DNA of 64,000 nucleotides, taken from the NCBI GenBank assembly GCA_963666115.2, contig CAXXET010000006.1, positions 520,574 through 584,573 of the forward strand, written 5' to 3'. This DNA is from Dehalococcoidia bacterium. GTDB taxonomy: Bacteria > Chloroflexota > Dehalococcoidia > UBA6926. Every line of letters begins with the position of its first letter. Positions within the stretch are counted from its first letter, which is position 1. Shown here in pieces: positions 6,004-63,581 of this stretch. The notes beneath the pieces are model-generated. The model was not told where the DNA came from. It worked only from the letters and a program-made list of their open reading frames with translations, and ran no database searches. A program made the position numbers and the translations under genes.

Positions 6004-6216
6004 CTAGGCGTAATAGAGGCGGTCGCCCTTCGGTTGGGGCACCTCCGCCCCGTCCTCACGCGCGGTATCGATCCAGAACTCCATGGCCTCGGTGATGCTC
6101 TTGAGCGCCTCCTCATAGGTATCGCCGTGTGCCATGCAGCCGGGTAGTTCCGGCACGTCGGCGATATAGACCTCGTCCACGTTGCTCCAGTAGATGATGA
6201 TCTCATATTGCAGCAC
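6004..6216 (-). CDS. hicB: HicB-family antitoxin
   Basis: YIADVPELPGCMAHGDTYEEAL. Confidence 0.9.
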   Translation of the reverse strand: MLQYEIIIYWSNVDEVYIADVPELPGCMAHGDTYEEALKSITEAMEFWIDTAREDGAEVPQPKGDRLYYA

Positions 6217-6473
6217 TACTCACCTCCAAACAGGCCGCTCTCTATGATAGCGTCCCTAACCTGGCGCACCTGGTACCCTTTCGCTTGCCCACCCAATCGC
6301 TGGATATTGATCCGACCGGCGAAGTCGCTTCTTGTGAATATGTGGTGACTCCCCCTGATTCGCTCTCTGAATCCGTGGCGGCGCAGGAACGTGCGGAGGT
6401 CATCGAACCGCATGTTGTTGTCGGATCGCCCACTGAGAATCCTACGCCCTATCCTGTCGTCTCCGTTCACCAC
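6216..6473 (-). CDS. hicA: HicA-family toxin
   Basis: GFRERIRGSHHIF..AKGYQVRQV; upstream of hicB. Confidence 0.85.
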   Translation of the reverse strand: MVNGDDRIGRRILSGRSDNNMRFDDLRTFLRRHGFRERIRGSHHIFTRSDFAGRINIQRLGGQAKGYQVRQVRDAIIESGLFGGE

Positions 6474-8593: not shown

Positions 8594-9504
8594 CGCCGCC
8601 GTTCCGCCCACCACCGCCTGAGCCGGAGAATATACCGCGAGCGCAGGTGAACCCGTTCCCCCGCGTGCGCCGCCACCTCCGCGCCGCCCGCCAATATGGC
8701 CCCCCGCCACCCATGCAGGTCATCCAGGGACACGCCCTCGTCTCCGAAAGAGGCGAACTCCGACCACGGCCCGCGCCACGCCTGCTTTTCAAGCACCCGC
8801 CCGCCCGCCTCCTCCACGAGGAGCACGCCGGCGGCCACGTCCCATATCTTGGGCTGGGCAAAGAGGACTAGCTGCATTGATCCCCGCGCAACCAGCGTCA
8901 TCTCATAGGCGACAGAGCCGAGAGACCGGACCTCCCCCAGTCGCATTCGCAGGCCGTCCTTGAACCCCCACGTGCGCCAGTACCAGGACGGCATTCCGGT
9001 GAGCCGCCCGCGCTCCGGCTCCGCGTTGGGGGTGACGGCGATGGGCCTGCCGTCCTGGAACGCCCCTGCTCCCCGCCGCGCGTGGATGACGGAGCCGCCG
9101 TCCGGGCCGGGGACGAAGATTGCTGCCACGGCAGGACGGCCCCTGTGCAGGACGCCGATGGATGACGCGAAGACGGGGAAGCCGTTCAGGAAATTCGTCG
9201 TGCCGTCGAGCGGATCAAGCACCCACACGAATTCGGCGGAGCCGTGCTCCGAGTTGGCGTTCTCCTCGCCGACGATGCCGTGATCGGGGAACGCCGTGGC
9301 AATTGCCGACCGCAGCCAGTCCTCGGACGCGCGGTCGGCCTGCGTCACGGGGTCGCGTCGTCCCTCGGTCTTGTACTCGATCTCCAGCGGCTTGCGAAAG
9401 TGGTCGAGGAGGATGTCGCCGGCGCCCCGCGCAAACTCAACGGCGCGGCGCTCGATCTCCTCGAGTTGGGCCGCGTGTCCTGTAGCATCATCGGAATCCG
9501 TCAC
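8590..9504 (-). CDS. Inositol monophosphatase family protein
   Basis: WVLDPLDGTTNF and WDVAAG motifs. Confidence 0.9.
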   Translation of the reverse strand: MTDSDDATGHAAQLEEIERRAVEFARGAGDILLDHFRKPLEIEYKTEGRRDPVTQADRASEDWLRSAIATAFPDHGIVGEENANSEHGSAEFVWVLDPLDGTTNFLNGFPVFASSIGVLHRGRPAVAAIFVPGPDGGSVIHARRGAGAFQDGRPIAVTPNAEPERGRLTGMPSWYWRTWGFKDGLRMRLGEVRSLGSVAYEMTLVARGSMQLVLFAQPKIWDVAAGVLLVEEAGGRVLEKQAWRGPWSEFASFGDEGVSLDDLHGWRGAILAGGAEVAAHAGERVHLRSRYILRLRRWWAERRR

Positions 9505-9549
9505 GCGCCCACCATAGCCACGCGCCCATCACCCCGTCAAACACCCCCC

Positions 9550-10365
9550 CTAAATCACCCGCCTCTTATACGCCGCCGCAAGCGCAAACACACCCGTCGC
9601 AACGAGCGCCATCGCCGGGCCGGACGGCAGATTCACGTAATAGGAGAGGTACAGCCCCGCGATGGCGGAGAGCGAGCCGATGACCGCGCCGACGACCATG
9701 CCGCCAACGAACCGGCGCGCGAGCAGGTGGCCGGCGGCGGCGGGCGTGACGAGCATGGCCATGACCAGAACGATGCCGGCGGCCTGGATGCCGATCACGA
9801 TGACCAGGGCGAGCAGCGTGAGCAGGGCGTAATCCAGGAGCCCGACGCGTATGCCCACGACCTCCGCGCTGACGGGGTCAAACGTGGCGTAGACGGCGAG
9901 GCGGTGAATTGCGTAGAGGCCGGCGACGACCAGGGCGGCCAGCGCAAGCGAGACGTAGACGTCTGCCGTGGAGACGCCCAGAACCTGCCCGAGCAGCAAG
10001 TCCTCCACGTTAATGGTGAGTCCCTCCGCCGAACCCAACATGATGAGCCCCAGCGCGAACATTCCGGCGAAGACAATGCCGATCGCGGTGTCCTCGCCGA
10101 TGCCGGTCTTGCGGCTGATGAAGCCCATCGTGGCAGCGACGCCAACGCCCGCCGGCACCGCCGCGATCAGCGGGCTGAATCCCAGCATGAAGGCGACGAC
10201 CATGCCGGGGAGGACGGCGTGCGCGAGCGCGTCGCCCATGAAGGAGCGCCCCCGCGCGATGACGTATGCGCCGATGATGGGGCACATCGCGCCGACGAGC
10301 ACGGACACGATGAGCGCCCGGATCATGAAGCTGTATTGGAAGGGATCGAGGATGAACTCAGTCAT
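9550..10365 (-). CDS. Metal (Zn/Mn) ABC transporter permease
   Basis: FMGDALAHAVLPG, EDTAIGIVF, LLLGQVLG. Confidence 0.9.
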   Translation of the reverse strand: MTEFILDPFQYSFMIRALIVSVLVGAMCPIIGAYVIARGRSFMGDALAHAVLPGMVVAFMLGFSPLIAAVPAGVGVAATMGFISRKTGIGEDTAIGIVFAGMFALGLIMLGSAEGLTINVEDLLLGQVLGVSTADVYVSLALAALVVAGLYAIHRLAVYATFDPVSAEVVGIRVGLLDYALLTLLALVIVIGIQAAGIVLVMAMLVTPAAAGHLLARRFVGGMVVGAVIGSLSAIAGLYLSYYVNLPSGPAMALVATGVFALAAAYKRRVI

Positions 10366-12757: not shown

Positions 12758-12830
12758 GCCGAGGTAGCTCAGGTGGTAGAGCACGCGACTGAAAATCGCG
12801 GTGTCGGCAGTTCAACTCTGCCCCTCGGCA
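12758..12830 (+). tRNA. tRNA-Phe(GAA)
   Basis: GCCGAGG acceptor pairs with CCTCGGC; anticodon loop CT-GAA-AA; TTCAA T-loop. Confidence 0.95.
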
Positions 12831-12851: not shown

Positions 12852-12926
12852 GCGGAAGTGGCGCAGTGGTAGCGCGTCTCCTTGCCAAGGAGAAGGTCGC
12901 GGGTTCAAATCCCGTCTTCCGCTCCA
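12852..12926 (+). tRNA. tRNA-Gly(GCC)
   Basis: GCGGAAG..CTTCCGC-TCCA; anticodon loop TT-GCC-AA; encoded CCA. Confidence 0.95.
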
Positions 12927-15849: not shown

Positions 15850-16587
15850 TTATTCTTCCTCAATCATCGCGCCTGTCTTGTATGCCCTCAACCAAATGCT
15901 AGAGCCTAAGGCTGCACCTAGAACTACGGGCGGCAGCAAGAGCAGATTATCTTCAATACCCATATAGGCGAGTACGAAGAATGTTACTATCGCGGCGCCG
16001 ATCGCCAGACCGACACAGCCTCCCACAACCTTCTCGCGCCTTGAAATGAAGCGTGTCCTCCTAAACTCCCTCACGGTGTCAGATTGGCTCGTGCGCTGAG
16101 TCGCCGCTTTGAACTCATCCTGGGATATGCGGCGCCGCGGGGCAGTCAAGCGTCTCTTGGGAACAAGACTTGAATATCGATCCCTGAACTCTTCGTCTGT
16201 TTGCAAGCCCTTCCGTTGGTTGCACTGACCACAGATGACCTGGAGGTTCGACTTGTCGTTAGAACCGCCCCGGACAACCGGAACAATGTGGTCAATTTCG
16301 AGTGTGCGGGCTGTGCGACGGTGACCGCAATAGACACAAGTGTTGTTCTGTCGTCGCATCAGTTCTTGTTTGAGCCCCTTAGGCCAAGCCACTCGTTCGG
16401 TCGGTCGGATTCGGCGCTCATCAGTGCGGGTGCGGAGCATCACCCAGATCAATTGATCCGCTACCCATAGTGAAGCGATGACTATCCAGGCCATAACTAC
16501 CTGGAGGATATTCTTAGCGCGTTGCTTTGCCGTGACCGTCTCCGATTCTGCCTCGGGCGCGGTGCGAATTTCAGGCTCGTTTGTCAT
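15850..16587 (-). CDS. HNH endonuclease with flanking hydrophobic segments
   Basis: CVYCG..EIDHIVP..GG..SNLQVICGQCN..K; hydrophobic stretches at both termini. Confidence 0.85.
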   Translation of the reverse strand: MTNEPEIRTAPEAESETVTAKQRAKNILQVVMAWIVIASLWVADQLIWVMLRTRTDERRIRPTERVAWPKGLKQELMRRQNNTCVYCGHRRTARTLEIDHIVPVVRGGSNDKSNLQVICGQCNQRKGLQTDEEFRDRYSSLVPKRRLTAPRRRISQDEFKAATQRTSQSDTVREFRRTRFISRREKVVGGCVGLAIGAAIVTFFVLAYMGIEDNLLLLPPVVLGAALGSSIWLRAYKTGAMIEEE

Positions 16588-16626
16588 GGCGGTTTGGCCT
16601 TTCGAGTTGCCGTGAGAGATCACATC

Positions 16627-16965
16627 CTATCTCGCACCTGCTGGGACGGCAACATCAATGTCAACCATCACGACGGTTGTCGATATCGTTGCGGGCCCGT
16701 CGGAAAATGTTCGGCTCAGCTCTGTAGCGTTTTCGGCCAACGTGTTGCTGTGGAACGTAAGCGCGTCCTGAACGGACATTTGCGGCATGGGAACCGGTTC
16801 ACCCTTCTCAGTGAGCTCTTCAATGTATAGAGCAACGGCATCCCGCATGATCTGCCGGACCTCCGTCCACGTCGCAGCTGTGCCGACGCAGCCCGGCAGG
16901 TCAGGAGAATAGGCGCTGTAATTGTTCGGCGTCTGCTCGAATACAACGGCGTAAGCAAGTTTCAT
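16627..16965 (-). CDS. hicB: HicB-family antitoxin
   Basis: YSAYSPDLPGCVGTAAT..DAVALYIE. Confidence 0.88.
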   Translation of the reverse strand: MKLAYAVVFEQTPNNYSAYSPDLPGCVGTAATWTEVRQIMRDAVALYIEELTEKGEPVPMPQMSVQDALTFHSNTLAENATELSRTFSDGPATISTTVVMVDIDVAVPAGAR

Positions 16966-17162
16966 CGTTCTCTCCCTCGCAGCCCCGCCTGTCGAAGAAT
17001 ACTCAACCACGTGCCCTGATCGATATCTTCACTAGGTTTGCCGGCTATCACGACGATTCCTTTCTTGGTTGCATGGTGAAAAATACGGTGACTGCCTCTC
17101 ATGCGAACAAAATACCAGCCATCTGCCTCAACGATGCGAATCGCCTCCCGGATCTTTGGCAT
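16962..17162 (-). CDS. hicA: HicA-family toxin
   Basis: DGWYFVRMRGSHRIFHH..GTWLSILRQAGL. Confidence 0.9.
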   Translation of the reverse strand: MPKIREAIRIVEADGWYFVRMRGSHRIFHHATKKGIVVIAGKPSEDIDQGTWLSILRQAGLRGRER

Positions 17163-22691: not shown

Positions 22692-23642
22692 CTAGCTATC
22701 GTCCTCGATCATGGCGCCGGTCACCACTTTGAACTCCGCTCGCAGTTCATTCAGGCTGCGCCGATTACTGCCCATGAGCTTGTCCAAGACGTCGTCGATG
22801 TCCCAGACTTCCAGCATCGATTGTCGTGTCATGTAGAACCCGATTTTGCGAATCTTGTGCTCGTCTGAATAGTCAAGCAACGCGTAACCAAGCAGTTGCC
22901 AGAGCCATTCAGTCTTGATCTGTAGTTGGATGGAAGTCTTGATGTCGATGAGGGCGCCATCGACTATCAAGTCGCCATCTGCCCCACTGACGTCCGTGGA
23001 GCCTTCAAATGTCGGATTGAGCACGTGGCGTCGGGAGAATAGCGCACCGTGTTCGCTATAGAAGGAGCGACTCAGCATGCGGAGATCATCAATGCACATG
23101 GGACTCGCGAGCTCCAGGAGTTGCTCCGTATTCGCAAAGCGCCTGTCGAGCGGAGTTCCCGGGCGGAGGCCAGACCGAGCCACCTCGTCAAGCAGTGCAA
23201 GCACATAGCAGTACCTCAAGAACTCCCTTTCCTGTTCGTCCTTGAGCTTTAAGCCGGAAACCGGTGTTCTTCGTAGGAAGGAATCAAAGTCCTGGAAGAA
23301 GCGCAGAAACTCCTCGGAGATGCTCTGCTCATAATCGATATCCCTGCGCCCTGTCTCCGAATCAACGTCAACATGGATGTGTCCTTGGAGATTCAACGCT
23401 CCTTGGGCGGCGACCAATTCGTGCCACGGTGCTGCTGAGAAGTAGTACCGGATACGATAGTCGATCGCGCTTCCCACCGTATTCCAAGGATATGCACCTG
23501 AGGCAGGCGGCCTCAGTATGGACGAATTCTTTAGTCGCTTACGTGGCTCCACCAAGAAACCGCGCGCGCCAGCGCCAAAAGTGTCTGCCAGAAACCGACT
23601 TACAGGGCTGTTCTTGTTGGCGATTTCCCGTGTGAGCGACAT
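22692..23642 (-). CDS. PD-(D/E)XK nuclease-like protein
   Basis: ADGDLIVDGALIDIKT followed by QLLGY (QxxxY). Confidence 0.65.
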   Translation of the reverse strand: MSLTREIANKNSPVSRFLADTFGAGARGFLVEPRKRLKNSSILRPPASGAYPWNTVGSAIDYRIRYYFSAAPWHELVAAQGALNLQGHIHVDVDSETGRRDIDYEQSISEEFLRFFQDFDSFLRRTPVSGLKLKDEQEREFLRYCYVLALLDEVARSGLRPGTPLDRRFANTEQLLELASPMCIDDLRMLSRSFYSEHGALFSRRHVLNPTFEGSTDVSGADGDLIVDGALIDIKTSIQLQIKTEWLWQLLGYALLDYSDEHKIRKIGFYMTRQSMLEVWDIDDVLDKLMGSNRRSLNELRAEFKVVTGAMIEDDS

Positions 23643-23678: not shown

Positions 23679-24869
23679 TTACCTTGGCAGGCCGAGGCCG
23701 CGTTGGGCGATGATGTTTAGTTGGATTTCGCGGCCGCCGCCGGCGAAGCGGTTCATCCAGCTTAGGTACGCGTTGACGGCGGGGTATCCGCCGAGGGGGG
23801 CTCGCGGCTCGCCTACGGTTAGGGCGGCGTGTTGGCCTAGTATGCGGGCTATTGTTTCATAGACGCGGGGCGTCATCTCATCGTGGAAGAGCTTGGAGAA
23901 TGCTGCCTCCATCATCGGAACCTCGCCCTTGCTCTGGATCGACGCGACCTGCAGGGCGAGCATGCGCCCGGTCTCGATGAGGATGCGGGCCTCTGCCAGG
24001 AGGTGGCGCGTCCGCTTGCCGTCGATGAGCCGGCCGCCATCGATGCGCGCCTCGCGGGCGTAGTCGATGAACCGCTCAAGGTCGCGCAGCCGCCGTGCCG
24101 GGGCCTCGATCTGCGAGCGTTCAAAGGACAAGGTCGTCATGGCGGCGTACCAGCCGCGATTCTCCTCGCCGATGACGTTGCGGGAGGGCACGCGGACGTT
24201 GTCCAGGAAAATCTCGCTCCAGCGGCGGCGTCCCAGCGCGTCCATAAGCGGGCGCTTCACCACGCCCGGCGTGTTCATGTCGATGATCAGGTAGGAAATG
24301 CCCCGGTGTTTCGGCGCGTCCGGGTCCGTTCGCACGAGATAGTGGCCCCAATCGACCCAAGGGTGGTGGCCCTGGCTGTTCCATATCTTCTGGCCGGTCA
24401 CGATCCAGTCGTCGCCGTCGCGCACGGCGCGGGTCTGGAGGTTGGCGAGGTCTGCGCCCGCGTTCGGCTCGCTGAAACCCTGCGACCATGAGATGAGTTC
24501 ACCACTGGCAATCTTTGGCAGGAAGAAGTCCCGCTGCCAGGGCTGGCCGTGGAACATGAGCATGGGCGCTTCAAAGCCCGGCTGGGCGATAGGCGCGCCG
24601 CGATAGGCCATCTCCTCGCGGTAGGCGATCTGGGTGGTGAAGGGGACGGCCTGCCCGCCGTATTCGTGGGGCCAGTGCATGGTGTACCAGCCCTTCTCGG
24701 CCAGCTTTCGCGTGAACTCCTGGAACAGGACCTCGTCCTCGGGCGTATCGACGTCATAGGAATAGACGGAATTGATGTGTGATTCGTAGGGGGAGTTCCA
24801 GTTGGCCTCCACGAATTCGCGCACCTCCCGGCGCAGCGCGATGTCCTGTTCCGAATAACTGAAGTCCAT
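23679..24869 (-). CDS. Acyl-CoA dehydrogenase, paralog of 17212-18402
   Basis: Same motifs; near-identical C-terminus YLSWMNRFAGGGREI. Confidence 0.92.
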   Translation of the reverse strand: MDFSYSEQDIALRREVREFVEANWNSPYESHINSVYSYDVDTPEDEVLFQEFTRKLAEKGWYTMHWPHEYGGQAVPFTTQIAYREEMAYRGAPIAQPGFEAPMLMFHGQPWQRDFFLPKIASGELISWSQGFSEPNAGADLANLQTRAVRDGDDWIVTGQKIWNSQGHHPWVDWGHYLVRTDPDAPKHRGISYLIIDMNTPGVVKRPLMDALGRRRWSEIFLDNVRVPSRNVIGEENRGWYAAMTTLSFERSQIEAPARRLRDLERFIDYAREARIDGGRLIDGKRTRHLLAEARILIETGRMLALQVASIQSKGEVPMMEAAFSKLFHDEMTPRVYETIARILGQHAALTVGEPRAPLGGYPAVNAYLSWMNRFAGGGREIQLNIIAQRGLGLPR

Positions 24870-24984
24870 GTCCGACACCGTCCTTTCCCCGTCCGTGCGC
24901 CGCTACTATGCCCCTGTTCTTGTGGCGCAAGCAAGCCGCCGCGACACGCGCGAGAGCAAAATGGAACAAATCATCCAAAAGGGG

Positions 24985-25013
24985 TTGACAAGCGAACGCG
25001 CGTTCGGTAGAGT
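24985..25013 (+). promoter_or_regulatory. Promoter TTGACA-17-TAGAGT with LexA-type box CGAAC-GCGC-GTTCG (24993-25006) in the spacer
   Basis: Read directly; GAAC-N4-GTTC is the LexA motif known from Gram-positives and Chloroflexi. Confidence 0.75.
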
Positions 25014-25019
25014 GGGTTC

Positions 25020-25145
25020 ACTCCTCCTTCTCCCAGACCATCTCCCCGCGCAAAAGGATGGATGGGAGAACGGCGCTTCCCGAGGGTAGGGGAACAGCGC
25101 CACAGCGATGCGGCGGGGCGGGCAACCGCCCCGCCGCGTTCTTTA
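25020..25145 (+). ncRNA. Putative small RNA (two hairpins plus terminator)
   Basis: Own promoter, stems TTCTCCCA/TGGGAGAA and GGCGCT/AGCGCC, terminator; no convincing ORF. Confidence 0.55.
25110..25145 (+). terminator. Intrinsic terminator
   Basis: GCGGCGGGGCGG-GCAA-CCGCCCCGCCGC then GTTCTTT. Confidence 0.75.
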
Positions 25146-25238
25146 TCCGCCATGCACTCCTGCCGCCTGTTGCCTAGCCGCGAATGCCGCCCGTATAATG
25201 GCGCTTGCGCCAAAATCTTGATGTGGGGGAAGGTGAGA

Positions 25239-25646
25239 TTGAATGCTCTAGGGACACACGTGCTGGTGGAACTCCGCGATTGTGACGCTACTGCGCTCAA
25301 TGATCTGCGAATCGTTGAATCCGCGCTCATCGACGCAGCGAGACGCATCAGCGCAACGATCATCGGACACGCTTTCCACCAGTTCAGCCCCCAGGGCGTC
25401 ACCGGCGTCGTCATCATTGCCGAATCCCACATCTGCATCCACACGTGGCCGGAGCACGGCTACGCCGCCGTTGACATCTTTACGTGCGGCGATACGTCGG
25501 GCCTTGAAGATGCCACCGAGCATATTGCCAGGGCCTTCGGTTCGCAGGACCGGTCGGTCGTCACACTCCACCGCGGGCAATTCGATCCGGCCGTGAGCGC
25601 TGCGGCGCGCGCGGCGCCGGATTTGGCCGGTGTCGCAGGCGCCTGA
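25239..25646 (+). CDS. speD: S-adenosylmethionine decarboxylase proenzyme (class 1B)
   Basis: HQFSPQGVTGVVIIAESHICIHTWPEHGYAAVDIFTCG; TTG start after a G/A-rich SD; TTGCCT-18-TATAAT upstream. Confidence 0.9.
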   Translation: MNALGTHVLVELRDCDATALNDLRIVESALIDAARRISATIIGHAFHQFSPQGVTGVVIIAESHICIHTWPEHGYAAVDIFTCGDTSGLEDATEHIARAFGSQDRSVVTLHRGQFDPAVSAAARAAPDLAGVAGA

Positions 25647-31809: not shown

Positions 31810-32193
31810 ATGAGCATCGAACGTATACAACCGGACGGGCTGAGCAAGCCGGCGGCGTACACGCAGGTCGTGAAGGTCGGCAATTATATCCACATCGCCG
31901 GGCAGACATCCCAGAATGCGGCCGGCGAGATTGTGGGCGCCGGGAATATCGACGAGCAGGCGGAGCAGGTGTTCAGCAACCTCGAGACCGGGCTGGCGTC
32001 CGTCGGCGCGACGTGGGCAAACGTCGTGAAGATCACGACGTTTCTCACGCGGCGGGAGGACATCGAGGGGTATCGGGCGGCGCGGCAGCGTCATATTCCG
32101 AACGACCCGCCGGCGAGCACGCTTCTGTTCATCAGCGGTTTGGCGCATCCGGATTACTTGATCGAGGTGGAGGCGACGGCGGTTTTGGGGTAG
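31810..32193 (+). CDS. RidA/YjgF family protein
   Basis: IAGQ..QAEQVFSNL..VVKITTF..PASTL..IEVEATA. Confidence 0.9.
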   Translation: MSIERIQPDGLSKPAAYTQVVKVGNYIHIAGQTSQNAAGEIVGAGNIDEQAEQVFSNLETGLASVGATWANVVKITTFLTRREDIEGYRAARQRHIPNDPPASTLLFISGLAHPDYLIEVEATAVLG

Positions 32194-32266
32194 GTGCGCC
32201 GCCCATTGGGGCAGGCTTGTACAATGGGCGCATGGAGATACGCGATCAGAGGATGGGCGGCGTGAG

Positions 32267-33697
32267 ATGACAACGGTTAGCGTGAGGGATTTGGGCCCGA
32301 TCGGGCGGGCCTCGGTGGACATCAAGCCGTTGACTGTGTTCGTCGGCCCGAACAACTCGGGCAAGTCGTACATGGCTCTGGCTATCTATTGTCTGTCCAG
32401 GACGCTTGCCGGAAGGGGACTTGCTGGCAGGATGCCATGGCGGCAATTCGAACCAAATCTCGACGACTCTATAGACCCCGAACTCCTTCTAAGGGCCGAG
32501 GAAGATATCGAGAAGATCTTCCCAGATGGTCGTTCGATCAGAGGAGGCCAGCTTCCTGACAATCCGAAGATTGGACAACTGCCACAGAGCATCCAGGCCC
32601 TCTTTGAAGGAGGGTCCCAAATGTTTGCTGTGGGTTTAGCGCAATTGCTCGAATCTGCAATCAAGCGGGTTTACGGTACTGACATAGCGAGGATTCGACG
32701 GCGCGACATTAGGGAGCAGCCTTCAAAGCTAACTATCGAAATTGAGCAGCACGCCAGCGCGTTCAAATGGGAGACGAGGGCGGCGGGTGGCGATCTCGGC
32801 ACGGAAATCTGGCAGAACAGCCTCGCGGATCAGGCATTTAACTCATACTTGCCTCAATTCGAAGACACTTCCGAGAACCCTTTGTTGGGCATGTTATTCT
32901 CCAACTTGGGGATATTCCGCCCCCCCAAAGTCTTGGAGGATGCGTACTATATGCCAGCGAGCAGGTCCGGCATTCTGCTTGGGCACAAGACTTTCTCCAG
33001 CCTCATCGTTGGTCAAGCCTCACAGGCATGGATACGCTCGTTGGAGATTCCGCGCCTTCCCGGCTTCGTGACGGATCTGATCCAGGACCTCTTGTTGATG
33101 ACTTCGGACGAACCTCATGGAACTCAACTGGACGGGATCATCGACTATCTTGAAGGCGAGATGGCTCACGGCTCAGTCAGGCTGGATGATTCTTCTGAGT
33201 ACCCATCCGTCTATTTTGAAGGCGACGCGGGCAGACTCCAGCTCCATGAGGCCTCGTCGATGGTTTCCGAAATCGCGCCCATCGTCTTGTATTTGAAGCA
33301 CATGGTTGAGCCTGGGGATATGTTCATTATCGAGGAACCGGAATCGCATGTCGATGCCGGCAACCAGCGGCGGCTTGCGCGGGCGATTGCCATGCTTGTC
33401 AACGCGGGCGTGAAAGTGCTGATTACAACGCACAGCGATTTCCTCGTCTCGCAGTTGGGCAACCTTGTCATGCTCAGCGGCATTTCGAAGCGGCGACGGG
33501 CGGCCAGACGCTACAAGGCCGAGGAAGTCCTTCAGCCAGACGACGTCGGGGTGTACATGTTTGAGCCTGGCCCGGACGGGTCTGTCGCGCGTCCGCTGGC
33601 GGTGGACGCGGAGCGCGGAATCCCGGTGGATTCGTTCACGGACGTGCATACCGGAATCTACGACGAGGCGATAGACCTGGAATACGCTGGGCGGTAG
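32267..33697 (+). CDS. ABC/AAA_15-type ATPase (defence-associated class)
   Basis: FVGPNNSGKS, PASRSG, ASSMVSE, IEEPESH, ITTHSD. Confidence 0.85.
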   Translation: MTTVSVRDLGPIGRASVDIKPLTVFVGPNNSGKSYMALAIYCLSRTLAGRGLAGRMPWRQFEPNLDDSIDPELLLRAEEDIEKIFPDGRSIRGGQLPDNPKIGQLPQSIQALFEGGSQMFAVGLAQLLESAIKRVYGTDIARIRRRDIREQPSKLTIEIEQHASAFKWETRAAGGDLGTEIWQNSLADQAFNSYLPQFEDTSENPLLGMLFSNLGIFRPPKVLEDAYYMPASRSGILLGHKTFSSLIVGQASQAWIRSLEIPRLPGFVTDLIQDLLLMTSDEPHGTQLDGIIDYLEGEMAHGSVRLDDSSEYPSVYFEGDAGRLQLHEASSMVSEIAPIVLYLKHMVEPGDMFIIEEPESHVDAGNQRRLARAIAMLVNAGVKVLITTHSDFLVSQLGNLVMLSGISKRRRAARRYKAEEVLQPDDVGVYMFEPGPDGSVARPLAVDAERGIPVDSFTDVHTGIYDEAIDLEYAGR

Positions 33698-33699
33698 AG

Positions 33700-34140
33700 G
33701 TGGACGTTCCCGCGAGACTGAACAACTGCCTGACTGATAGGTGCGAAGAAGAGGGTTGCAGTCTCAGCCTGCGTGGGATGCAGGATTCGATCAGCGTTCT
33801 GTCGATGAACTGTGTGAGGAGAACGCTGAGGGCTAAGGGGCGGACAGCCGATTTTGCCGTGCTGTCCAACAGTAGCCGGTGGGTAGCAATGATCGAACTC
33901 AAGGGCGGGCAGAACTTGAAAATCGGACAAATCGTAGAGCAGATTCAGAACGGCCTAGATATGCTCGTCAACGGGTTGGGTGATCAGATAGTCGATGAGT
34001 TCTTTCCCATTCTTGTGCATCACAGTGACCGGGATCCACGCAGAACGCTCAGCGGACGAATGATAACGTTGAGGGGCACCCAGCGGAGGATAATCGTTGC
34101 GGAATGCGGCGACAGGCTGGCACCACTTATTCGGGCCTAG
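33700..34140 (+). CDS. Small partner protein, PD-(D/E)XK-like
   Basis: ADFAVL..MIELKGG..EQI; starts 2 bp after the ATPase stop. Confidence 0.55.
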   Translation: MDVPARLNNCLTDRCEEEGCSLSLRGMQDSISVLSMNCVRRTLRAKGRTADFAVLSNSSRWVAMIELKGGQNLKIGQIVEQIQNGLDMLVNGLGDQIVDEFFPILVHHSDRDPRRTLSGRMITLRGTQRRIIVAECGDRLAPLIRA

Positions 34141-34178
34141 AATAGCGCCCCATTTTGATTGTGAATTCTCATATGGCC

Positions 34179-35657
34179 TTACCGCGCCATATAGCCGCGC
34201 TTCGCGTTCTCCCTGCGGAGGCCGGACAAGGTGTAGATGTTTGATTTCAGCATGTTGCACGGCCCGCAGAGCAGCACTCGATTCGTGATGTGATTGATTC
34301 CGCCGTCTGCGCGGGGGGTGTTGTGATCCAGTTGGAGGTAGCGCGGATCGTCGAAAGCGCGGTCACAGCCCTGGCAGCGCTGGCCGTTCTGCGCGATGAG
34401 ATGGTCGAACATCTCTTGCCGCGTCATGCGAGGGCCGGCAGGCTCCTTGAACCGCTCGGTCACCTGCAAGAAGGGTACTGCCTCCTCCGCATCGTCAGTC
34501 CGCTCCGGCGGCTCCGTGATGAAGTTGATCTGCGGATTCGGCTCCCTGAGCAGTTGCCGATTGTCCTCCATCCTCTGCTTGACGACTTCCAGCGCTCCGT
34601 CCCAAATATCCGCTCCGACCCACTGCCGACCAAGCCGCTCAGCCGCAATCGGCGTCGTGGCGCACCCCGCGAACGGATCAAGCACAACATCGCCCTCGTT
34701 GCTGCTCGCGCTTATGATGCGCTCATACAAGGCAAGCGGCTTCTGGGTGGGATAGCCGACTCGCTCTCGCTTCGATCCGCCCATTGTCTGAAGAGCATAG
34801 ACATCGTCAACAATGTCTTGAAGTGGGAGCCCCTTGGCCTCTTCGTGGTACCGCTTTAGCTTGGGCCATGCCCCTTTTGTCTTTGGCCAATAGATTCTTC
34901 CGTCACTGTCCAACTCATCCAGAACCCTGGGCGGGTTCATCCAGTGCCGCCCTTTCTCGGTCGGATTGAAGCCTCTCCAAGGAGTTCCTGTTTCGCCCTG
35001 CCTTATGCCCGAGCCAGTCAAGTCGCCCGTCCAATAGCGACCTCTCCCGTCTCCATCGTCAAACTTGAAGTACCTCTCGACGTAATCTGAATCGTAATCG
35101 CGGCGCGGATCTGTCCAGACATAGCGGTGAGACTTCGAATAGAAGAGGATAATGTCGTGAATGGGCCCAAACCGCTTCGCACTGCTGTGGGCGTGACTAC
35201 GCTTCCAAACGATCTCGTTCCGAAAGTGCTCCTGGCCGAAGATTGCGTCCATCAGGGCCTTCAGATAGTGGCTCGCTGTCGGATCGCAGTGGAGATAGAT
35301 GCTGCCGTCGCTGCGCAGAACGCGATGCATCTCGATGAGTCGGACGGCCATGAAGCAGAGAAACGCGGCGAGACCCTCGCCGTAGCCCTCTTTCACACCG
35401 TTGATGACGTTCATCACCTTCGGCCAGTCATCAGTGATCTGATCGACCCACTCGCCCTGCACATCATCGTCCCACTTCCAGCGGTCCTGGAACTTTGCGC
35501 CGCGCGCGAGGCTGTCCGGCGTTGCGTGGAAGTCGCGTCCCTTGTTGAACGGCGGGTCCGTCGCGATTAGGTGGACCGACTCGCTGTTCAACCCGCGCAG
35601 GAACGGCAGGTTGTCGCCGTGGAAGAGGGTGCGGTTGGGGACGTTTAGGTCAGTCAT
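34179..35657 (-). CDS. N6/N4 DNA methyltransferase with C-terminal HNH domain
   Basis: DPPF, YPTQKP, VLDPFAGCAT; C-terminal CQGC..LDHNTP..GG..LCGPCN..K. Confidence 0.9.
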   Translation of the reverse strand: MTDLNVPNRTLFHGDNLPFLRGLNSESVHLIATDPPFNKGRDFHATPDSLARGAKFQDRWKWDDDVQGEWVDQITDDWPKVMNVINGVKEGYGEGLAAFLCFMAVRLIEMHRVLRSDGSIYLHCDPTASHYLKALMDAIFGQEHFRNEIVWKRSHAHSSAKRFGPIHDIILFYSKSHRYVWTDPRRDYDSDYVERYFKFDDGDGRGRYWTGDLTGSGIRQGETGTPWRGFNPTEKGRHWMNPPRVLDELDSDGRIYWPKTKGAWPKLKRYHEEAKGLPLQDIVDDVYALQTMGGSKRERVGYPTQKPLALYERIISASSNEGDVVLDPFAGCATTPIAAERLGRQWVGADIWDGALEVVKQRMEDNRQLLREPNPQINFITEPPERTDDAEEAVPFLQVTERFKEPAGPRMTRQEMFDHLIAQNGQRCQGCDRAFDDPRYLQLDHNTPRADGGINHITNRVLLCGPCNMLKSNIYTLSGLRRENAKRGYMAR

Positions 35658-35920
35658 TTTCGTAGCTCCCGATATGCATGGATGATCAGACCTAAGAGGA
35701 CTCCAAGCAATATGCCGCGTCCTGCGCTCATTATCGCAGACGCGCTTAGTTCTTCAAGCGGAATCTGTCCAGCTAACCAAAGGGCAACAGCGAAAATCGC
35801 CGCGACCACAAGCCCTCGCATCCACGAATCCAAGCATGCTACGCAGCCTATCACCACCGCCGCAGTGAAGACTGCTAGGTCGAACTGGGCGAACCCAAGG
35901 ATAGGGTCACCGTCTAGCAT
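35654..35920 (-). CDS. Small membrane protein
   Basis: Three hydrophobic segments; 4-bp overlap with the MTase start. Confidence 0.55.
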   Translation of the reverse strand: MLDGDPILGFAQFDLAVFTAAVVIGCVACLDSWMRGLVVAAIFAVALWLAGQIPLEELSASAIMSAGRGILLGVLLGLIIHAYRELRK

Positions 35921-36204
35921 CGTCGTTCTCCCCGTTCCACCCCTGTACCTTTCTGTGCGTCGCCTGCTAGTCCCTACAGGTTACGCTACCGTTCACTTCC
36001 ATGATAGCACAAAAGTTTTGAGCTCGCTCGCCCCTTGACCTTCCGCTCAATCGGAGTCTGTTCGCCTTTCTGCGGCCCCCAAGTCTCCTCACGCTCAGAG
36101 GGGGGTGCCCCCGCCTGCGCGGGGGATTCGGTGGGTGGGTGGGTTTCGCCCTTCGGCGGGGCTTGGGGTGAACGGGGGGTGTTCGGTTGCAACATTGGGG
36201 CTTT

Positions 36205-36265
36205 GGATTCTTCGCTGCGCTCAGAATGACAGTCCCGATGGATTCCGGCTTTCGCCGGAATGACA
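36205..36265. repeat. Repeat family B copy plus adjacent GGATTCCGGCTTTCGCCGGAATGAC palindromic repeat
   Basis: GGATTCTTCGCTGCGCTCAGAATGACA at 36205-36231; second element 36239-36265 shares the GGATTC..GAATGACA ends. Confidence 0.85.
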
Positions 36266-36269
36266 GGCC

Positions 36270-36839
36270 TTACTCCGCTTTGGCGGCTTCGTTCGGCTGC
36301 ATTTGTTGCCAGGCTTCTCGTTTTATGTCCATTAGCATGAAGCGGTAGCGGCCTCTGTCGGTGAAGCCTGTTTGGGTGAAGCCTGCTTTTGCGAAGGCTC
36401 TTTGGGCTCGGACGTTCCAGTCCAGGGTTTTCAGGTAGACGCGGTTTAGTTCCAGCTTGTTGAACATCCAGCTTGTTAGGAGCTTGACGGCATCCGTGCC
36501 GTAGCCGCCGTTCCAGTAGGCGCGGTCGCCGATCATGATGCCAAGCTCAGCCTCTTTGGCGCGGCGGTCAAGATCGTAGTACATGCAGTTGCCGATGTGC
36601 TTGCCCTCCGAGAGTTCGACGATGGCGAAGCGGTGGCTGCGCTTTGAGATGTAGTTGAGGTCGTCCTTGTGGATGGGCGCGTACTGCTCATAGGTCATCT
36701 TGAGGGGGTAGGCGGCGTCCAGCTCGGCAAGCTCATCGTCGGAGCGCCACAGGTAATCGTTCCACGAGTCCATCTCGGCCTTGTCTCTCAGGCCGACGCG
36801 TTCGCCTGTGACGATAAGCGGCTTAGCTATGGTCGCCAT
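36270..36839 (-). CDS. RimJ/RimL GNAT acetyltransferase
   Basis: ELGIMIGDRAYWNGGYGTDA..NVRAQRAFAKAGF. Confidence 0.88.
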   Translation of the reverse strand: MATIAKPLIVTGERVGLRDKAEMDSWNDYLWRSDDELAELDAAYPLKMTYEQYAPIHKDDLNYISKRSHRFAIVELSEGKHIGNCMYYDLDRRAKEAELGIMIGDRAYWNGGYGTDAVKLLTSWMFNKLELNRVYLKTLDWNVRAQRAFAKAGFTQTGFTDRGRYRFMLMDIKREAWQQMQPNEAAKAE

Positions 36840-50686: not shown

Positions 50687-51646
50687 ATGTGGGCATACAT
50701 TGTGCGCCGGCTTTTGCTGGCAATACCGACGCTGTTGGGAGTCACGGTCGTTGTCTTTCTGATCATGCGGATTGCGCCGGGCGACCTGGCGCTGATGATC
50801 ATTTGCGGCACGGGCGAGAGCTGCGCTTTCGATGAGGCCGCGCTTGATCGCGTCCGCGAGGAGCTCGGTCTGAATAAGCCGCTCTACGTACAGTACTTCG
50901 ACTGGCTATTTGGCCTCGTGACGCTGGACTTCGGGCGGTCGTTCTTCTACAACGCGGAGATGTCAGAGCTGCTTGCGCGGAAGGCCCCGCTGAGCATTCA
51001 GGTTGGGCTGATGGGGTTGGTGTTCGGCAGCCTTTTGGGCATTGCGGGCGGTGTCATCGCGGCTCTCAAGCAGGACACGTTTACGGACTACTTCATTCGC
51101 GGCACGGCGATCCTGGGCATTTCCGTTCCTACATTCTGGAGCGGGATGATGCTGATCCTGATCTTCGTGCGGATGTTTGACTGGATTCCGCGGCAGGGCT
51201 ACGTCCCGATCTGGGAAGACCCGATTGCCAACCTGGCGCAACTAGTTTGGCCTGCGCTGATCATCGGCCTCGGCTTCCTCATGGGAGTGCCGCTCCGCAT
51301 GATGCGGGCAACGATGCTGGAGGTCATGCGCGAGGACTATGTGCGCACGGCGCGGTCCAAGGGACTCAAGGAGCGGGTGATCATCGTTCGCCATGCAATG
51401 CGCAACGCTCTCATTCCCGTGCTCACGTTGATTGGGATATTCCTGCCGATCACGGTGACGGGACTGGTGGTGACAGAGCAGGTGTTTGGCCTGCCCGGCG
51501 TGGGGCGCATGATGGTGGACGCCATCAACCAGCGGGACTACCCCGTCGTTCAACTGGTGGTCACCATGACGGGATTCGCGGTGGTGCTGGCGAACCTGGG
51601 CGTGGACATGCTGTACGGGTGGCTCGATCCGCGGATCCGGTACTAG
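50687..51646 (+). CDS. Opp/Dpp ABC permease (OppB-like), copy 1
   Basis: DYVRTARSKGL..HAMRNA..LDPRIRY. Confidence 0.92.
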   Translation: MWAYIVRRLLLAIPTLLGVTVVVFLIMRIAPGDLALMIICGTGESCAFDEAALDRVREELGLNKPLYVQYFDWLFGLVTLDFGRSFFYNAEMSELLARKAPLSIQVGLMGLVFGSLLGIAGGVIAALKQDTFTDYFIRGTAILGISVPTFWSGMMLILIFVRMFDWIPRQGYVPIWEDPIANLAQLVWPALIIGLGFLMGVPLRMMRATMLEVMREDYVRTARSKGLKERVIIVRHAMRNALIPVLTLIGIFLPITVTGLVVTEQVFGLPGVGRMMVDAINQRDYPVVQLVVTMTGFAVVLANLGVDMLYGWLDPRIRY

Positions 51647-51814: not shown

Positions 51815-52774
51815 ATGTGGGCATATGTAATACGCCGCATATTATTGGCGGTGCCGACGATTCTTGGCGTGACCATCGTGGTCTTCCTGATCATGCGCAT
51901 CGCGCCTGGCGACGTGGCCATCATGATGCTTGGCGGCGGCGAAGGCGGCGGCGGAATCGATCCGGAGGCGCTGGAGAGAATCCGAACCGAGTTAGGCCTG
52001 AATAAACCGCTCTATGAGCAGTACCTGGGCTGGGTGTACGGGCTCCTCACCCTCGACTTTGGCAAGTCCTTCTTCTACAACGCCGACATGGATCGGCTGA
52101 TTGCGAGGAAGGCTCCCCTTAGCCTCCAGGTTGGCGTGATGGGCCTCATCATCGGCAGCACTCTTGGGATCGCCGGCGGAGTTGTCGCCGCGCTCAAGCA
52201 GGACACATTCTTCGATTACCTCATTCGCGGCATCGCGATTCTCGGCATCTCCGTCCCGACGTTCTGGAGCGGCATGATGCTGATTCTCATCTTTGTCCGG
52301 GTGTTTGACTGGATTCCCCGGCAAGGGTACATCCCGATCTGGGAGGATCCGATTGCCAACCTGGCGCAGTTGATTTGGCCGGCGCTGATCATCGGCCTTG
52401 GATTCCTGATGGGCGTGCCGCTGCGCATGATGCGCGCCACCATGCTTGAAGTCATGCGGGAGGACTACATCCGCACGGCGCGCGCGAAGGGCCTCAAGGA
52501 GCGGGTGATCATCGTGCGCCACGCCATGCGGAACGCCTTGATCCCGGTGCTTACCCTGATCGGCATCTTCTTGCCCATCACGGTGACCGGCCTCGTCGTG
52601 ACGGAGCAGGTCTTCGGCCTCCCGGGCATTGGGCGCATGATGGTGGACTCCATAAACCAGCGAGATTTCCCGGTCGTTCAGCTCGTTGTGACGCTCACCG
52701 GCTTTGCCGTCGTCGCCGCGAACCTGGGCGTGGACCTGCTGTACGGTTGGCTTGATCCACGGATCCGGTACTAG
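51815..52774 (+). CDS. Opp/Dpp ABC permease (OppB-like), copy 2
   Basis: Same length and highly similar to copy 1. Confidence 0.92.
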   Translation: MWAYVIRRILLAVPTILGVTIVVFLIMRIAPGDVAIMMLGGGEGGGGIDPEALERIRTELGLNKPLYEQYLGWVYGLLTLDFGKSFFYNADMDRLIARKAPLSLQVGVMGLIIGSTLGIAGGVVAALKQDTFFDYLIRGIAILGISVPTFWSGMMLILIFVRVFDWIPRQGYIPIWEDPIANLAQLIWPALIIGLGFLMGVPLRMMRATMLEVMREDYIRTARAKGLKERVIIVRHAMRNALIPVLTLIGIFLPITVTGLVVTEQVFGLPGIGRMMVDSINQRDFPVVQLVVTLTGFAVVAANLGVDLLYGWLDPRIRY

Positions 52775-61246: not shown

Positions 61247-61984
61247 TCAATTCAAGGGATTTCGCCGTATGTGCCTGGGCCGCCAATGAAATCCCATAGC
61301 TCCTGACCGATGAGAACCTGGCTTTTCATGTCCATCACCTGCTTGGTGACGGAATGGCCGTATCTCTCGCGTGTGAGATAAGGGTTGTAGGTGAGTCCCA
61401 GGAATGCTTGCGCGTTCCCAATCCCTCTCTCGCGCACGTATTGCTAGGTAGTAGAGGAGCTTTCTCTTCGACTCCGCCGCGATATCCAGGTTTGGCAAGG
61501 GTGTCTTTAGTTCCACGAAGAGCGGGCCTCCCGTAAAGTCACCGATGTGAAGGTCGGCGATGACGGAACGCCGGGATTGACCACCGCCGAGCGAGTTCAG
61601 AATTTCGCTCAGTTCCCTTTCATGATCGGGTCGTCTATCGACAGTTCGCTGGCGCGGGCCCGTCCTGAGGGTCGTTACGATCTCCTCAATCATGTTCACG
61701 GCGGCATCATTGATTGTTCCTGCGATTTCAAGCTCAAGATGGACGTCCGTGAACCTGTCGAGGGCGACTGCTTGAGCCAATTGTGGGTAAAGCACCGATC
61801 CCATCGCCGTTACAACGCTGCGTTCCGTGCGCGCTGCCCCCACCTGTGCCTCTGTGAAAAAGAGCCGATGAAACGGATATGCCAGCCGGATGTCGCCGAT
61901 TCCTTTCCGTGCAAGCTTTGTGTGTTGGTCGCTGATGAACGACCTGAACACTTCCCTTACCGCATCCTTGGTTTCAGAGCGCAT
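61247..61984 (-). CDS. Type II restriction endonuclease (TdeIII/MjaII-like), frameshift near 61440
   Basis: ADLHI..FVELKTPLPN; C-terminal YNPY..LIGQELWDFIGG..TY in an alternative frame (61252-61437). Confidence 0.7.
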   Translation of the reverse strand: MRSETKDAVREVFRSFISDQHTKLARKGIGDIRLAYPFHRLFFTEAQVGAARTERSVVTAMGSVLYPQLAQAVALDRFTDVHLELEIAGTINDAAVNMIEEIVTTLRTGPRQRTVDRRPDHERELSEILNSLGGGQSRRSVIADLHIGDFTGGPLFVELKTPLPNLDIAAESKRKLLYYLAIRARERDWERASIPGTHLQPLSHTREIRPFRHQAGDGHEKPGSHRSGAMGFHWRPRHIRRNPLN

Positions 61985-61988
61985 AGAA

Positions 61989-63218
61989 TTAGTCCCCGGC
62001 TTTCCACACTAGGATGCTTTCGAAGAAATCACCAGCGCGGCGGCCAGTTCGGCGGTTGACGTGCCGCTCAAGCCGGGTTTCCATTTCGAAGCCTGCTTGC
62101 TCTCGGATTGTGTCGTACAGGCCGAGCTTGTCGTTGACGACAACGACGACGCGCCCTCCCTTCGCCAGCCCCCGGCGAACGTTCGCAAATGACTGCGCCA
62201 TGTCGTTGACGTATGCCTCACGCGCCTTGATCGATGTGCCGGATGCTGCGGCGCCGATTTCCTTGTCTGCCTTCCATGGCAATCCGAGCAACTCGTATGA
62301 ATACCGGTGCTGCTCGTGATAATCGATCAGGCCGACGTATGGTGGGGACGTAATCACGAGGTCAAAGCGTGGGAACTCAACTGTGCGCGTGTCTCCCGTG
62401 ATGATGGACAGGGCCACATCCTTGCGCACGTCCGAAAACTCCCGGATGCGCCTGACTGTATCCAAGCTGTATCGCTGGAGGAACTGGGCGGCGTTCTGCG
62501 TGGGCGTGCAAATTCGCCCGTGCTTGTAGCAGTGGTACGGCTCAGTTTGGGGCTGCTTCGGGAAGTCAAGATCGAAGTGTGTCGTCAGTCTGGCCGAACG
62601 CGCGGCGCGCGACAATATGAGGCGCAGAGCATCGGAATAGCGATACTCGTGGATTAGGCGCTCGTAAGCCAGCAACGCCTTTAGCGCCTCTGGCGCGAAC
62701 CATGCCGTCAGGTAATCGCTGGGCTGGTATGGCGTGCGAGACTCGCTCAATTGAGGCTGGCTCGTATTCAATGATCGGTTCAGAATGTCATCGGTCTCGT
62801 ATTCCAGCACGTCCACGTCGTACTTGCCGGTCTTGACTGTTGTGACCAGGCTGTTGAACGACGATATATCGCACCCCACCGCGTTTATTCCGAGTGTTGC
62901 CGCCTCGACGAGAGTTGTACCGGAGCCGCTAAATGGGTCGCATACTGTTGTCGGCAGGAACTTCCGCAAGAAAATCTCGGCTATTTGAGGAACGAACTTG
63001 CCGAGGTAGGGGTGGAGGCTGTGGACGTGCTTGGTGCGGACGCGCTGGGGAAGGTCGCTCTCCGTCCAGTTGAGATTCAGCGCCGCCAGATCCGTGCCCT
63101 CAGCGATGGATTCAAAGTCTACGAACGGTCTCTCAACATATGTAGGGGAGTAGCCGAACGACGGCTTGGCCTCTATGGGCAAGCCCTCTTCCCTCGCCAA
63201 CTCCGTGACCACGTCCAT
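61989..63218 (-). CDS. N4-cytosine-type DNA methyltransferase
   Basis: HPYLGKF, DPFSGSGTT, TSPPY; adjacent to the REase. Confidence 0.88.
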   Translation of the reverse strand: MDVVTELAREEGLPIEAKPSFGYSPTYVERPFVDFESIAEGTDLAALNLNWTESDLPQRVRTKHVHSLHPYLGKFVPQIAEIFLRKFLPTTVCDPFSGSGTTLVEAATLGINAVGCDISSFNSLVTTVKTGKYDVDVLEYETDDILNRSLNTSQPQLSESRTPYQPSDYLTAWFAPEALKALLAYERLIHEYRYSDALRLILSRAARSARLTTHFDLDFPKQPQTEPYHCYKHGRICTPTQNAAQFLQRYSLDTVRRIREFSDVRKDVALSIITGDTRTVEFPRFDLVITSPPYVGLIDYHEQHRYSYELLGLPWKADKEIGAAASGTSIKAREAYVNDMAQSFANVRRGLAKGGRVVVVVNDKLGLYDTIREQAGFEMETRLERHVNRRTGRRAGDFFESILVWKAGD

Positions 63219-63293
63219 GTCTGACCGAACCCCCTCGCACTTCCCACGTGATGATAGAGTAACATAGTATCGACCTAACGTTCGGGGAACACA

Positions 63294-63581
63294 ATGACGA
63301 ACCGACGGAAAGGAGAATGTGTCGTGGATGTGGCCATGACGGACACCGAGCATTACAACTACGGACATGACCGGGGAAGCATCGCCGCGCATCTGAACGC
63401 GGCCATGTGGAACCTACAACGGGTCCAGGAGATACGTGAGTTCCTTGTGAACAGGATGGACGACGATGATACTCGGTACGATCACCCCGACCGGTTGGCC
63501 TTGGATGCCGTCGTTTCTGAGGTCAATGACGCGTTGCCCCTAATTCAAAAGGCGTATGACGCCAATCTGGAAGGCTACTAG
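63294..63581 (+). CDS. Hypothetical protein
   Basis: ORF with AAGGAG SD nearby; start uncertain. Confidence 0.5.
   Translation: MTNRRKGECVVDVAMTDTEHYNYGHDRGSIAAHLNAAMWNLQRVQEIREFLVNRMDDDDTRYDHPDRLALDAVVSEVNDALPLIQKAYDANLEGY

Follow-up and report, generated by a model that had tools for sequence, protein, structure and literature searches.

A candidate LexA-gated small RNA gene between acd and speD in uncultured Dehalococcoidia

Introduction

Small RNAs (sRNAs) with a link to the SOS repressor LexA are known from other bacteria. The 6C RNA of Corynebacterium glutamicum has a LexA operator as determined by electrophoretic mobility shift assay, and its expression is reported to be about three-fold up without LexA (PMC5014011). 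DinR of Klebsiella pneumoniae is cut from the LexA-controlled dinI mRNA and, according to the report describing it, blocks the ribosome-binding site of ftsZ in the SOS response (PMC10907235). In Escherichia coli, the SOS-induced antisense RNAs of the type I toxin-antitoxin loci istR/tisB and agrB/dinQ have been presented as small RNAs linked to LexA-controlled loci (PMC5014011, PMC10907235). Chromatin immunoprecipitation (ChIP) in Mycobacterium tuberculosis placed binding sites of a Gram-positive-type LexA at the sRNA genes MTS1082 and MTS2823; in that study, neither responded to mitomycin C and one of the peaks had no recognizable box (PMC3381160). Here we describe a candidate sRNA gene in a 64,000-nt stretch of DNA (contig CAXXET010000006.1; hereafter the window) from a Dehalococcoidia bacterium of the phylum Chloroflexota. 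It consists of a promoter with a LexA-box-like palindrome in its spacer and a predicted structured RNA of about 120 nt, and it lies upstream of speD. To our knowledge, stand-alone sRNAs directly gated by LexA are rare, and the small regulatory RNAs of the Chloroflexota, a large and mostly uncultured phylum, are almost entirely uncharacterized.

The RNA shares the logic of the LexA-linked sRNAs, not their sequence, structure or architecture. Like 6C, which is found in Actinobacteria, it is stand-alone and highly structured with C-rich single-stranded parts, and the lineage of 6C is described as having an SOS system of the GAAC-N4-GTTC type. However, the phylum differs and Rfam gives no 6C match even at E values up to 10. 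The published 6C operator lies upstream of the -35 element and partially represses an abundant RNA, whereas the present box fills the promoter spacer, which predicts tight on/off control. As reported for DinR, synthesis would be gated by a LexA box (a candidate one in our case), but the RNA is not derived from a host mRNA and carries a promoter and a terminator of its own, and both the type of LexA motif and the phylum differ. The istR/tisB and agrB/dinQ RNAs act on an adjacent toxin mRNA, whereas our unit has no conserved small open reading frame (ORF) on either strand and thus no toxin partner. In comparison with MTS1082 and MTS2823, the box is perfect and would occlude the promoter. A CU-rich motif complementary to the Shine-Dalgarno (SD) sequence as presumed seed is shared with the CCUCCUCCC-motif sRNAs (CcsR1-4, RF02791) and other C-rich anti-SD sRNAs, but the motif is located in hairpin loops in CcsR and forms the 5' tail in our RNA. 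The only match to CcsR1 scored 11.9 bits against a gathering threshold of 65.3 and lay on the opposite strand, over the terminator hairpin. A limited literature search found no sRNA of this kind in print for Chloroflexota; for organisms named Dehalococcoid- it returned only a survey of 50 genomes, whose retrieved passages deal with an rdhA motif and do not mention speD, LexA or SOS.

Results

Architecture of the RNA unit

The unit is located in the 360-bp gap between speD and a divergent acyl-CoA dehydrogenase gene (acd). On the + strand, a promoter scan identified a -35 hexamer TTGACA (24985-24990) and a -10 hexamer TAGAGT (25008-25013) separated by 17 nt, with a score of 10/12 for the promoter. 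Wholly within this spacer, a motif search located the strand-symmetric palindrome CGAACGCGCGTTCG (24993-25006), a perfect 14-bp CGAAC-N4-GTTCG and a candidate LexA box. The first-pass annotation, which was made from the DNA letters, had reported the promoter and the perfect box in its spacer, and we recovered each of these elements. Judged by sequence, an operator that fills the spacer between -35 and -10 is in the position that a repressor would require. Upstream of the -35 hexamer, alignment with the relative L001 introduced below delimits a conserved A-rich block (24956-24984, + strand) that may be an UP-like element. Conservation climbs sharply at this block in comparison with the spacer towards acd (24879-24960), in which 50/105 positions are identical.

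Within 701 bp the scan found two promoter-like sites, the RNA promoter and the speD promoter, against 0.2 expected; the whole window contains 27 on both strands. A candidate acd promoter, TTGCTT-18-CATAGT (24905-24934, - strand), was read by eye; its -10 element is kept in L001 and it lies about 100 bp from the box. Since this promoter is that far off and the promoter scan showed no - strand promoter-like site at the box, we conclude that the box serves the RNA promoter. Overall, it is likely that the RNA gene lies under a repressor-occluded promoter.

The position of the -10 element predicts a transcript start at about 25020 and a transcript of about 120 nt. It would begin with an unpaired CU-rich 5' tail of 8 nt, ACUCCUCC (25020-25027, + strand), which is complementary to GGAGG and a candidate seed, and which stays unpaired in both the minimum free energy (MFE) and the centroid fold. 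The tail is followed on the same strand by hairpin 1 (25028-25070) with 8 + 6 pairs and the 12-nt C-rich loop CCCCGCGCAAAA, by hairpin 2 (25072-25101) with ten pairs and the loop GAGGGUAG, and by a terminator-like hairpin (25107-25146, the hairpin itself extending to 25140), found by folding and by a terminator scan. The latter has 15 pairs, including a core of 12 perfect G-C-rich pairs, a GCAA loop and a subsequent CUUUAU. The MFE of the fold is -72.5 kcal/mol (z = -5.37), and none of 200 shuffled sequences was as stable. The CU-rich tract, the two hairpins and the 12-bp GCAA-capped terminator hairpin are present as the first-pass annotation had described them, and the unit combines its own promoter and its own terminator hairpin in an intergenic position.

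Conservation in a related genome

A search with speD yielded 5546 relatives; among the 120 listed, 28 were at least 70% identical, nearly all of them metagenomic. A profile search of genome contigs with the 32 best speD sequences and the window as query confirmed 581 loci, of which the best 80 were kept. One of them, L001, is a close relative with 75% identity in speD and belongs to a complete Dehalococcoidia chromosome (OZ244736.1) that is a metagenome-assembled genome (MAG); the next locus among these best 80 of 581 reaches 62%. We compared a 20-kb stretch of L001, which is syntenic with the window across most of its length at a DNA identity of 79-86%.

In L001 the RNA unit also adjoins an acyl-CoA dehydrogenase gene and comprises TTGACA (8951-8956) and, 17 nt on, TAAAGT, with the spacer CGAACGCCCGTTCG and the same tail and hairpins; the terminator hairpin is present with an altered sequence. 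The box of L001 (8959-8972) keeps 10/10 positions of the arms and 3/4 of the center. Conservation of box and hairpins in relatives was a check proposed by the first-pass annotation, and both are kept in this single orthologous locus (1/1).

Promoter and RNA together are identical at 145 of 158 positions (92%), and hairpins 1 and 2 at 79 of 83. As a neutral reference, identity at four-fold third-codon positions amounts to 0.50 in acd (n=199), 0.61 in speD (n=57), 0.56 in speE (n=166) and 0.57 in the CoA-transferase gene (n=409). The binomial probability of at least 145 identities out of 158 at p=0.61 is 1.5e-18. Alignment columns 1-127 of the RNA contain 11 differences, seven at unpaired positions and four in paired columns, and all four of the latter keep the pairing (one compensatory pair and two wobble-compatible changes), such that 39/39 predicted pairs are intact in both sequences. 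In hairpin 1 all 14 pairs are invariant and L001 differs in the internal bulge only. Hairpin 2 of L001 shows one change from G-C to G-U and the deletion of one bulge base, and the terminator hairpin has one compensatory change from G-C to C-G and one from U-G to U-A. The 5' tail is identical at 8/8 positions; taken together with loop 1 (12 nt) and loop 2 (8 nt), 28/28 nucleotides are identical compared to at most 61% at neutral sites, and therefore sequence-specific contacts are indicated for tail and loops. In view of these data we regard it as very probable that a real RNA gene, non-coding and under selection, is present here.

Coding potential and family searches

Relative to L001 there are two 1-nt indels, located in the bulges of hairpins 1 and 2 (one in each), and together they shift every reading frame. 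Two ATG-initiated frames exist inside the RNA, and the peptides from the window and L001 are unrelated beyond 12 codons. For the translation of the + strand ORF, the protein search found no relative. The translation of the - strand ORF of L001 gave four matches among 1.84 billion representatives (E 1.8e-6 to 7.2e-4), namely unrelated proteins of 617-1980 amino acids with several matched stretches each, and we take these matches as compositional. Since the indels break the frames and the translations have no relatives, we consider the unit non-coding, in agreement with the first-pass annotation, which had assigned no protein to it. A small-peptide gene is ruled out by the frame-breaking indels. 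An SOS-induced type I toxin locus was likewise rejected, as there is no conserved small hydrophobic ORF and the frames part after 12 codons.

At gathering thresholds, a scan of the whole window with Rfam 15 (6C, CcsR1 and riboswitches included) found nothing in the RNA region. A permissive scan of 24800-25350 with E values up to 10 gave nine sub-threshold matches (E 1.5-5.1, at most 20.1 bits), mostly to the terminator hairpin. This Rfam comparison had also been suggested by the first-pass annotation, for which a match to a known constitutive RNA would have spoken against its proposal; no known family, and hence no such RNA, was matched. We built a covariance model, R1, from the window and L001 sequences and ran it on the window and the 80 speD loci (1,302,346 bases). 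High scores were obtained by the two training sequences only (164.2 and 161.7 bits); two matches were to the reverse strand of the same hairpins, and five others had E values of 0.098-2.4. No further homolog was found by R1 in the window or the 79 other speD loci, so the RNA family is narrow as far as it is visible. A blastn search of phage and plasmid collections gave no match to the RNA unit, and an origin from a mobile element was rejected on this basis. Judged by its sequence, the family of this structured RNA of about 120 nt appears to be undescribed so far, and it is seen in two related uncultured Dehalococcoidia genomes.

Relation to speD

The speD gene (+ strand) starts with TTG at 25239 and is preceded by its own promoter, TTGCCT-18-TATAAT (25170-25199, + strand). 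The -10 element and the 5' untranslated region of speD are identical to L001 at 64 of 79 positions and recognizable in a further locus, L002; the separate speD promoter noted in the first-pass annotation is thus found in the window and kept in both relatives. In L001, a two-gene VapBC-like toxin-antitoxin pair (9227-9897) that is absent from the window separates the RNA's terminal hairpin from the speD promoter. Its two members are an RHH-like ORF of 94 aa (NikA-like at E 3e-5, which is below cutoff) and a PIN-domain ORF of 129 aa (PF01850, E 1e-16). Because the junction between RNA and speD tolerates this insertion of 0.8 kb, we consider the two as separate transcription units and the RNA not as a dedicated speD leader. 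Directly upstream of the toxin-antitoxin pair, L001 contains an inverted repeat with a palindrome near 9185-9205.

Many database SpeD proteins of the clade are annotated as 14 residues longer (149 aa). The extra codons begin at an ATG that overlaps the TATAAT -10 element and then cross the 5' untranslated region (window 25194-25241), and in this frame a 1-nt difference in the window creates a stop codon. We rejected the N-terminal extension on account of this stop; it is most likely a gene-calling artefact, and TTG 25239 is therefore taken as the true start.

Still, the RNA could act as a cis-acting leader, in which the repressor-gated promoter and a leaky hairpin (an attenuator) would give conditional, SOS-dependent read-through into downstream genes. 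In the window these would be speD-speE followed by the genes of a thiamine pyrophosphate (TPP) enzyme, a PcrA/UvrD helicase and RNase D, and in L001 the toxin-antitoxin pair. The genes from speD through RNase D, the helicase included, are indeed all on the same strand. Past the terminal hairpin, the window has a weak U tract and the + strand of L001 has none, which makes read-through possible. In addition, truncated transcripts of the window, when folded, allowed pairing between the 5' tail and the terminator's 5' arm as long as the 3' arm was still missing. However, the terminator fold is more stable than this alternative by 26 kcal/mol (-72.5 vs -46.1 kcal/mol), and the antiterminator search did not reproduce the alternative in L001. 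The conservation of the speD promoter in L001 and L002 and the 670 bp of toxin-antitoxin genes that separate the RNA from speD in L001 also argue against a leader, no riboswitch family was matched in Rfam, and a plain attenuator would leave the invariant loops and 5' tail unexplained. A 5' leader, attenuator or riboswitch of speD is not supported, given its own promoter, the two intervening genes in L001 and the lack of a conserved antiterminator. The attenuator feeding speDE that the first-pass annotation had offered as its alternative is disfavored by the insertion in L001 and because no antiterminator fold is conserved, and we rate the cis-acting leader in its general form as improbable. 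For the terminal hairpin of L001 (9075-9104), the terminator scan calls a terminator on the - strand only, the strand on which the hairpin is followed by a T-rich tail.

Pairing of the 5' tail with ribosome-binding regions

For the first 20 nt of the RNA, pairing with ribosome-binding regions was predicted at -21.8 and -21.1 kcal/mol for speD of the two genomes, at -22.5 kcal/mol for the TPP enzyme gene and at -22.0 kcal/mol for acd of L001, compared to a background with a mean of -7.5 and a standard deviation of 4.1 kcal/mol. The best other pairing sites of these 20 nt in the 64-kb window are inside coding regions. The first-pass annotation had proposed that the RNA may occlude ribosome-binding sites. 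Its premise stands insofar as the first 20 nt are predicted to pair with strong sites (-21 to -22.5 kcal/mol), but the pairing is about equal for each of the strong sites examined and thus unspecific. In this model the pairing is compatible with occlusion of ribosome-binding sites and names no target.

Other features of the window

The window has a G+C content of 62.7%, and its nearest database relatives are MAGs labelled Dehalococcoidia/Chloroflexi. The acd gene is located at 23679-24878 (- strand; ORF and Pfam scan). Downstream of speD, the genes for SpeE, the TPP enzyme, the PcrA/UvrD helicase and RNase D follow on the same strand, and the ORF scan identified acyl-CoA dehydrogenases, a family III CoA-transferase and a thiolase as neighbors on the - strand. 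Close to acd, a 316-aa ORF (22692-23642, - strand) without Pfam family shows weak PADLOC matches to a PD-(D/E)XK nuclease model (RTasPDDEXK, E 4.8e-9); it is a strain-specific insertion, as the flanking CoA-transferase and acyl-CoA dehydrogenase genes adjoin in L001.

A block at about 32190-36300 is missing from the synteny with L001. It encodes an AAA ATPase with strong PADLOC matches (PD-T4-4_A, E 2e-45; also AriA- and GajA-like), a 146-aa ORF without matches and a DNA methyltransferase fused to an HNH nuclease, and looks like a small defense island. A TdeIII-like type II restriction endonuclease adjoins a DNA methylase at 61247-63392 (- strand). Two HicB-like antitoxin ORFs, one of which precedes an 85-aa ORF without family, are present on the - strand (6004-6473 and 16627-17010), together with an HNH endonuclease ORF (15850-16623, - strand). 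Two adjoining ABC permease ORFs of 319 aa each (50687-51646 and 51815-52774, + strand) have identical Pfam domain coordinates and are possibly a tandem duplication. Two tRNA genes 22 nt apart (12758-12830 and 12852-12923, + strand) were the sole Rfam matches of the window at gathering threshold.

Discussion

We propose that the near-consensus sigma-70-type promoter transcribes an independent structured RNA gene of about 120 nt. A dimeric repressor bound to the 14-bp palindrome would exclude RNA polymerase, and the RNA would be made only once the repressor leaves. The inducing signal would most likely be DNA damage, through RecA-stimulated self-cleavage of LexA. The RNA would end in a very stable G-C hairpin and would most likely act in trans, with the invariant CU-rich 5' tail and the two loops pairing with purine-rich ribosome-binding regions and lowering the translation of target mRNAs. 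Transcript ends, repressor, action in trans and targets are given here as we infer them. We put the probability of the whole chain, that is, an independent, LexA-gated RNA that acts in trans on ribosome-binding sites, at roughly 0.45.

A number of observations weigh against this proposal. The box core alone is no better than chance: one 12-mer GAAC-N4-GTTC is found in the window where 1.02 are expected, and 65/100 shuffles contain at least one. The 14-mer CGAAC-N4-GTTCG is marginal, with one occurrence against 0.17 expected and at least one in 15/100 shuffles (p~0.15). L001 is the sole ortholog examined, and its entire promoter block is conserved, which makes conservation of the box inseparable from that of the promoter. 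With two sequences covariation is powerless (the observed score is reached by 237/500 shuffles, and no variation occurs in helices 1 and 2), so that the structure is supported by thermodynamics and by the lack of disruptive changes. The failure of R1 to find copies beyond its training pair, the poor U tract and the absence of a specific target within 64 kb, where the 5' tail pairs generically with strong SD sites, belong here as well. Neither lexA nor recA, uvr or any other SOS gene is among the 71 window ORFs scanned. Finally, the palindrome also fits the operator of a TetR-family repressor, which is discussed below.

The improbable part of the arrangement is the placement of the box in the spacer and not the box itself. 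From the expectation for the 14-mer and the 27 promoter-like sites, a 14-mer fully inside a promoter-like spacer is expected about 3e-4 times per window, and the question of chance is settled by the orthologous locus, which shows the same arrangement. A chance arrangement or a decaying remnant without present function, such as the 5' end left behind by a lost SOS gene, would agree with the chance frequency of the box core and with a family seen in two genomes only. However, neither would account for 92% identity over 158 nt compared to 50-61% at neutral sites, for paired-column substitutions that all preserve pairs, or for a fold with a z score of -5.37. Recent transfer of such a remnant is countered by the flanking non-coding DNA, which is not equally identical (50/105 in the spacer towards acd). 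We consider this explanation very improbable.

As to the repressor, LexA is the most likely candidate, at somewhat better than even odds, since the palindrome agrees perfectly with the GAAC-N4-GTTC LexA box of Gram-positive-type SOS systems and is flanked by C and G. The first-pass annotation lists Chloroflexi among the users of this box, and a 2002 paper reportedly describes it for Dehalococcoides LexA. The printed consensus derives from Firmicutes and Actinobacteria (PMC3323433) and may differ from that of the host lineage. In M. tuberculosis the LexA motif is given as TCGAAC(N4)GTTCGA, and sites carrying as many as three mismatches are reported to be bound (PMC3381160); our box matches 10/12 specified bases of this consensus, which is actinobacterial. 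A lexA gene is annotated in Dehalococcoides mccartyi (DET0274; PMC8203822). The window contains no second GAAC-N4-GTTC box. Among the best 80 speD loci the motif has 15 matches besides the ortholog, and all of the six inspected are inside long ORFs (6/6); these 15 matches give no calibration of an SOS box.

A repressor other than LexA is unlikely but has to be taken seriously. In such a case the same independent sRNA would be controlled by, for example, an acyl-CoA-responsive TetR-type repressor tied to the acd, CoA-transferase and thiolase genes, and the RNA would answer a metabolic signal instead of DNA damage. For the TetR-family repressor PaaR of Thermus thermophilus, the operator consensus CNAACGNNCGTTNG has been derived from two promoters (PMC9493321, PMC6651687). 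The boxes of the window and of L001 both fit this published consensus, and the sole base that differs between them lies in the free center of CNAACGNNCGTTNG too. Furthermore, acyl-CoA dehydrogenases, a family III CoA-transferase and a thiolase are encoded on the adjoining - strand, and no SOS gene is nearby. On the other hand, CNAACGNNCGTTNG is drawn from only those two promoters, and the selection-derived PaaR consensus is described with abutting half-sites, which the RNA-promoter box does not fit. No TetR-family Pfam match was found among the 71 window ORFs scanned. The box is about 100 bp from the likely acd promoter and would occlude the RNA promoter only, and a Gram-positive-type LexA, if the organism has one, would bind the perfect box. 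We thus regard a TetR-type repressor as unlikely, and LexA remains the preferred candidate.

Action of the RNA in trans on ribosome-binding sites is a tentative proposal, for which we see somewhat less than even odds. Alternatively, the RNA could bind a protein or otherwise function as a structured RNA without base pairing, as a sponge or scaffold, with the loops as protein contacts and the CU-rich tail incidental. The invariance of loops and tail over 28 nt, the very stable fold and the failure to find a specific mRNA target in 64 kb would agree with this view. However, no known protein-binding RNA family was matched in Rfam, the loops are without repeated GGA-type or other reiterated motifs, and a protein partner has no positive support; we give a protein-binding function a low probability. 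A similarly speculative form of the base-pairing model is an SOS-gated anti-SD mimic, in which LexA cleavage would release a burst of RNA that titrates GGAGG-type sites and acts as a global translational brake during repair. While we consider this improbable, it would, if true, mark the first description in Chloroflexota of a riboregulator and of an RNA arm of the SOS response.

The significance of the locus is limited in that only one ortholog is at hand, the hosts are uncultured and precedents exist elsewhere. Still, the unit is a compact and testable case, in which 160 bp combine a near-consensus promoter and its perfect operator with a short, very stable RNA. Should the link to LexA prove false, the locus would still represent a new selected sRNA family under tight repressor control. 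If the link is true, the SOS response of a third major lineage would gain an RNA arm.

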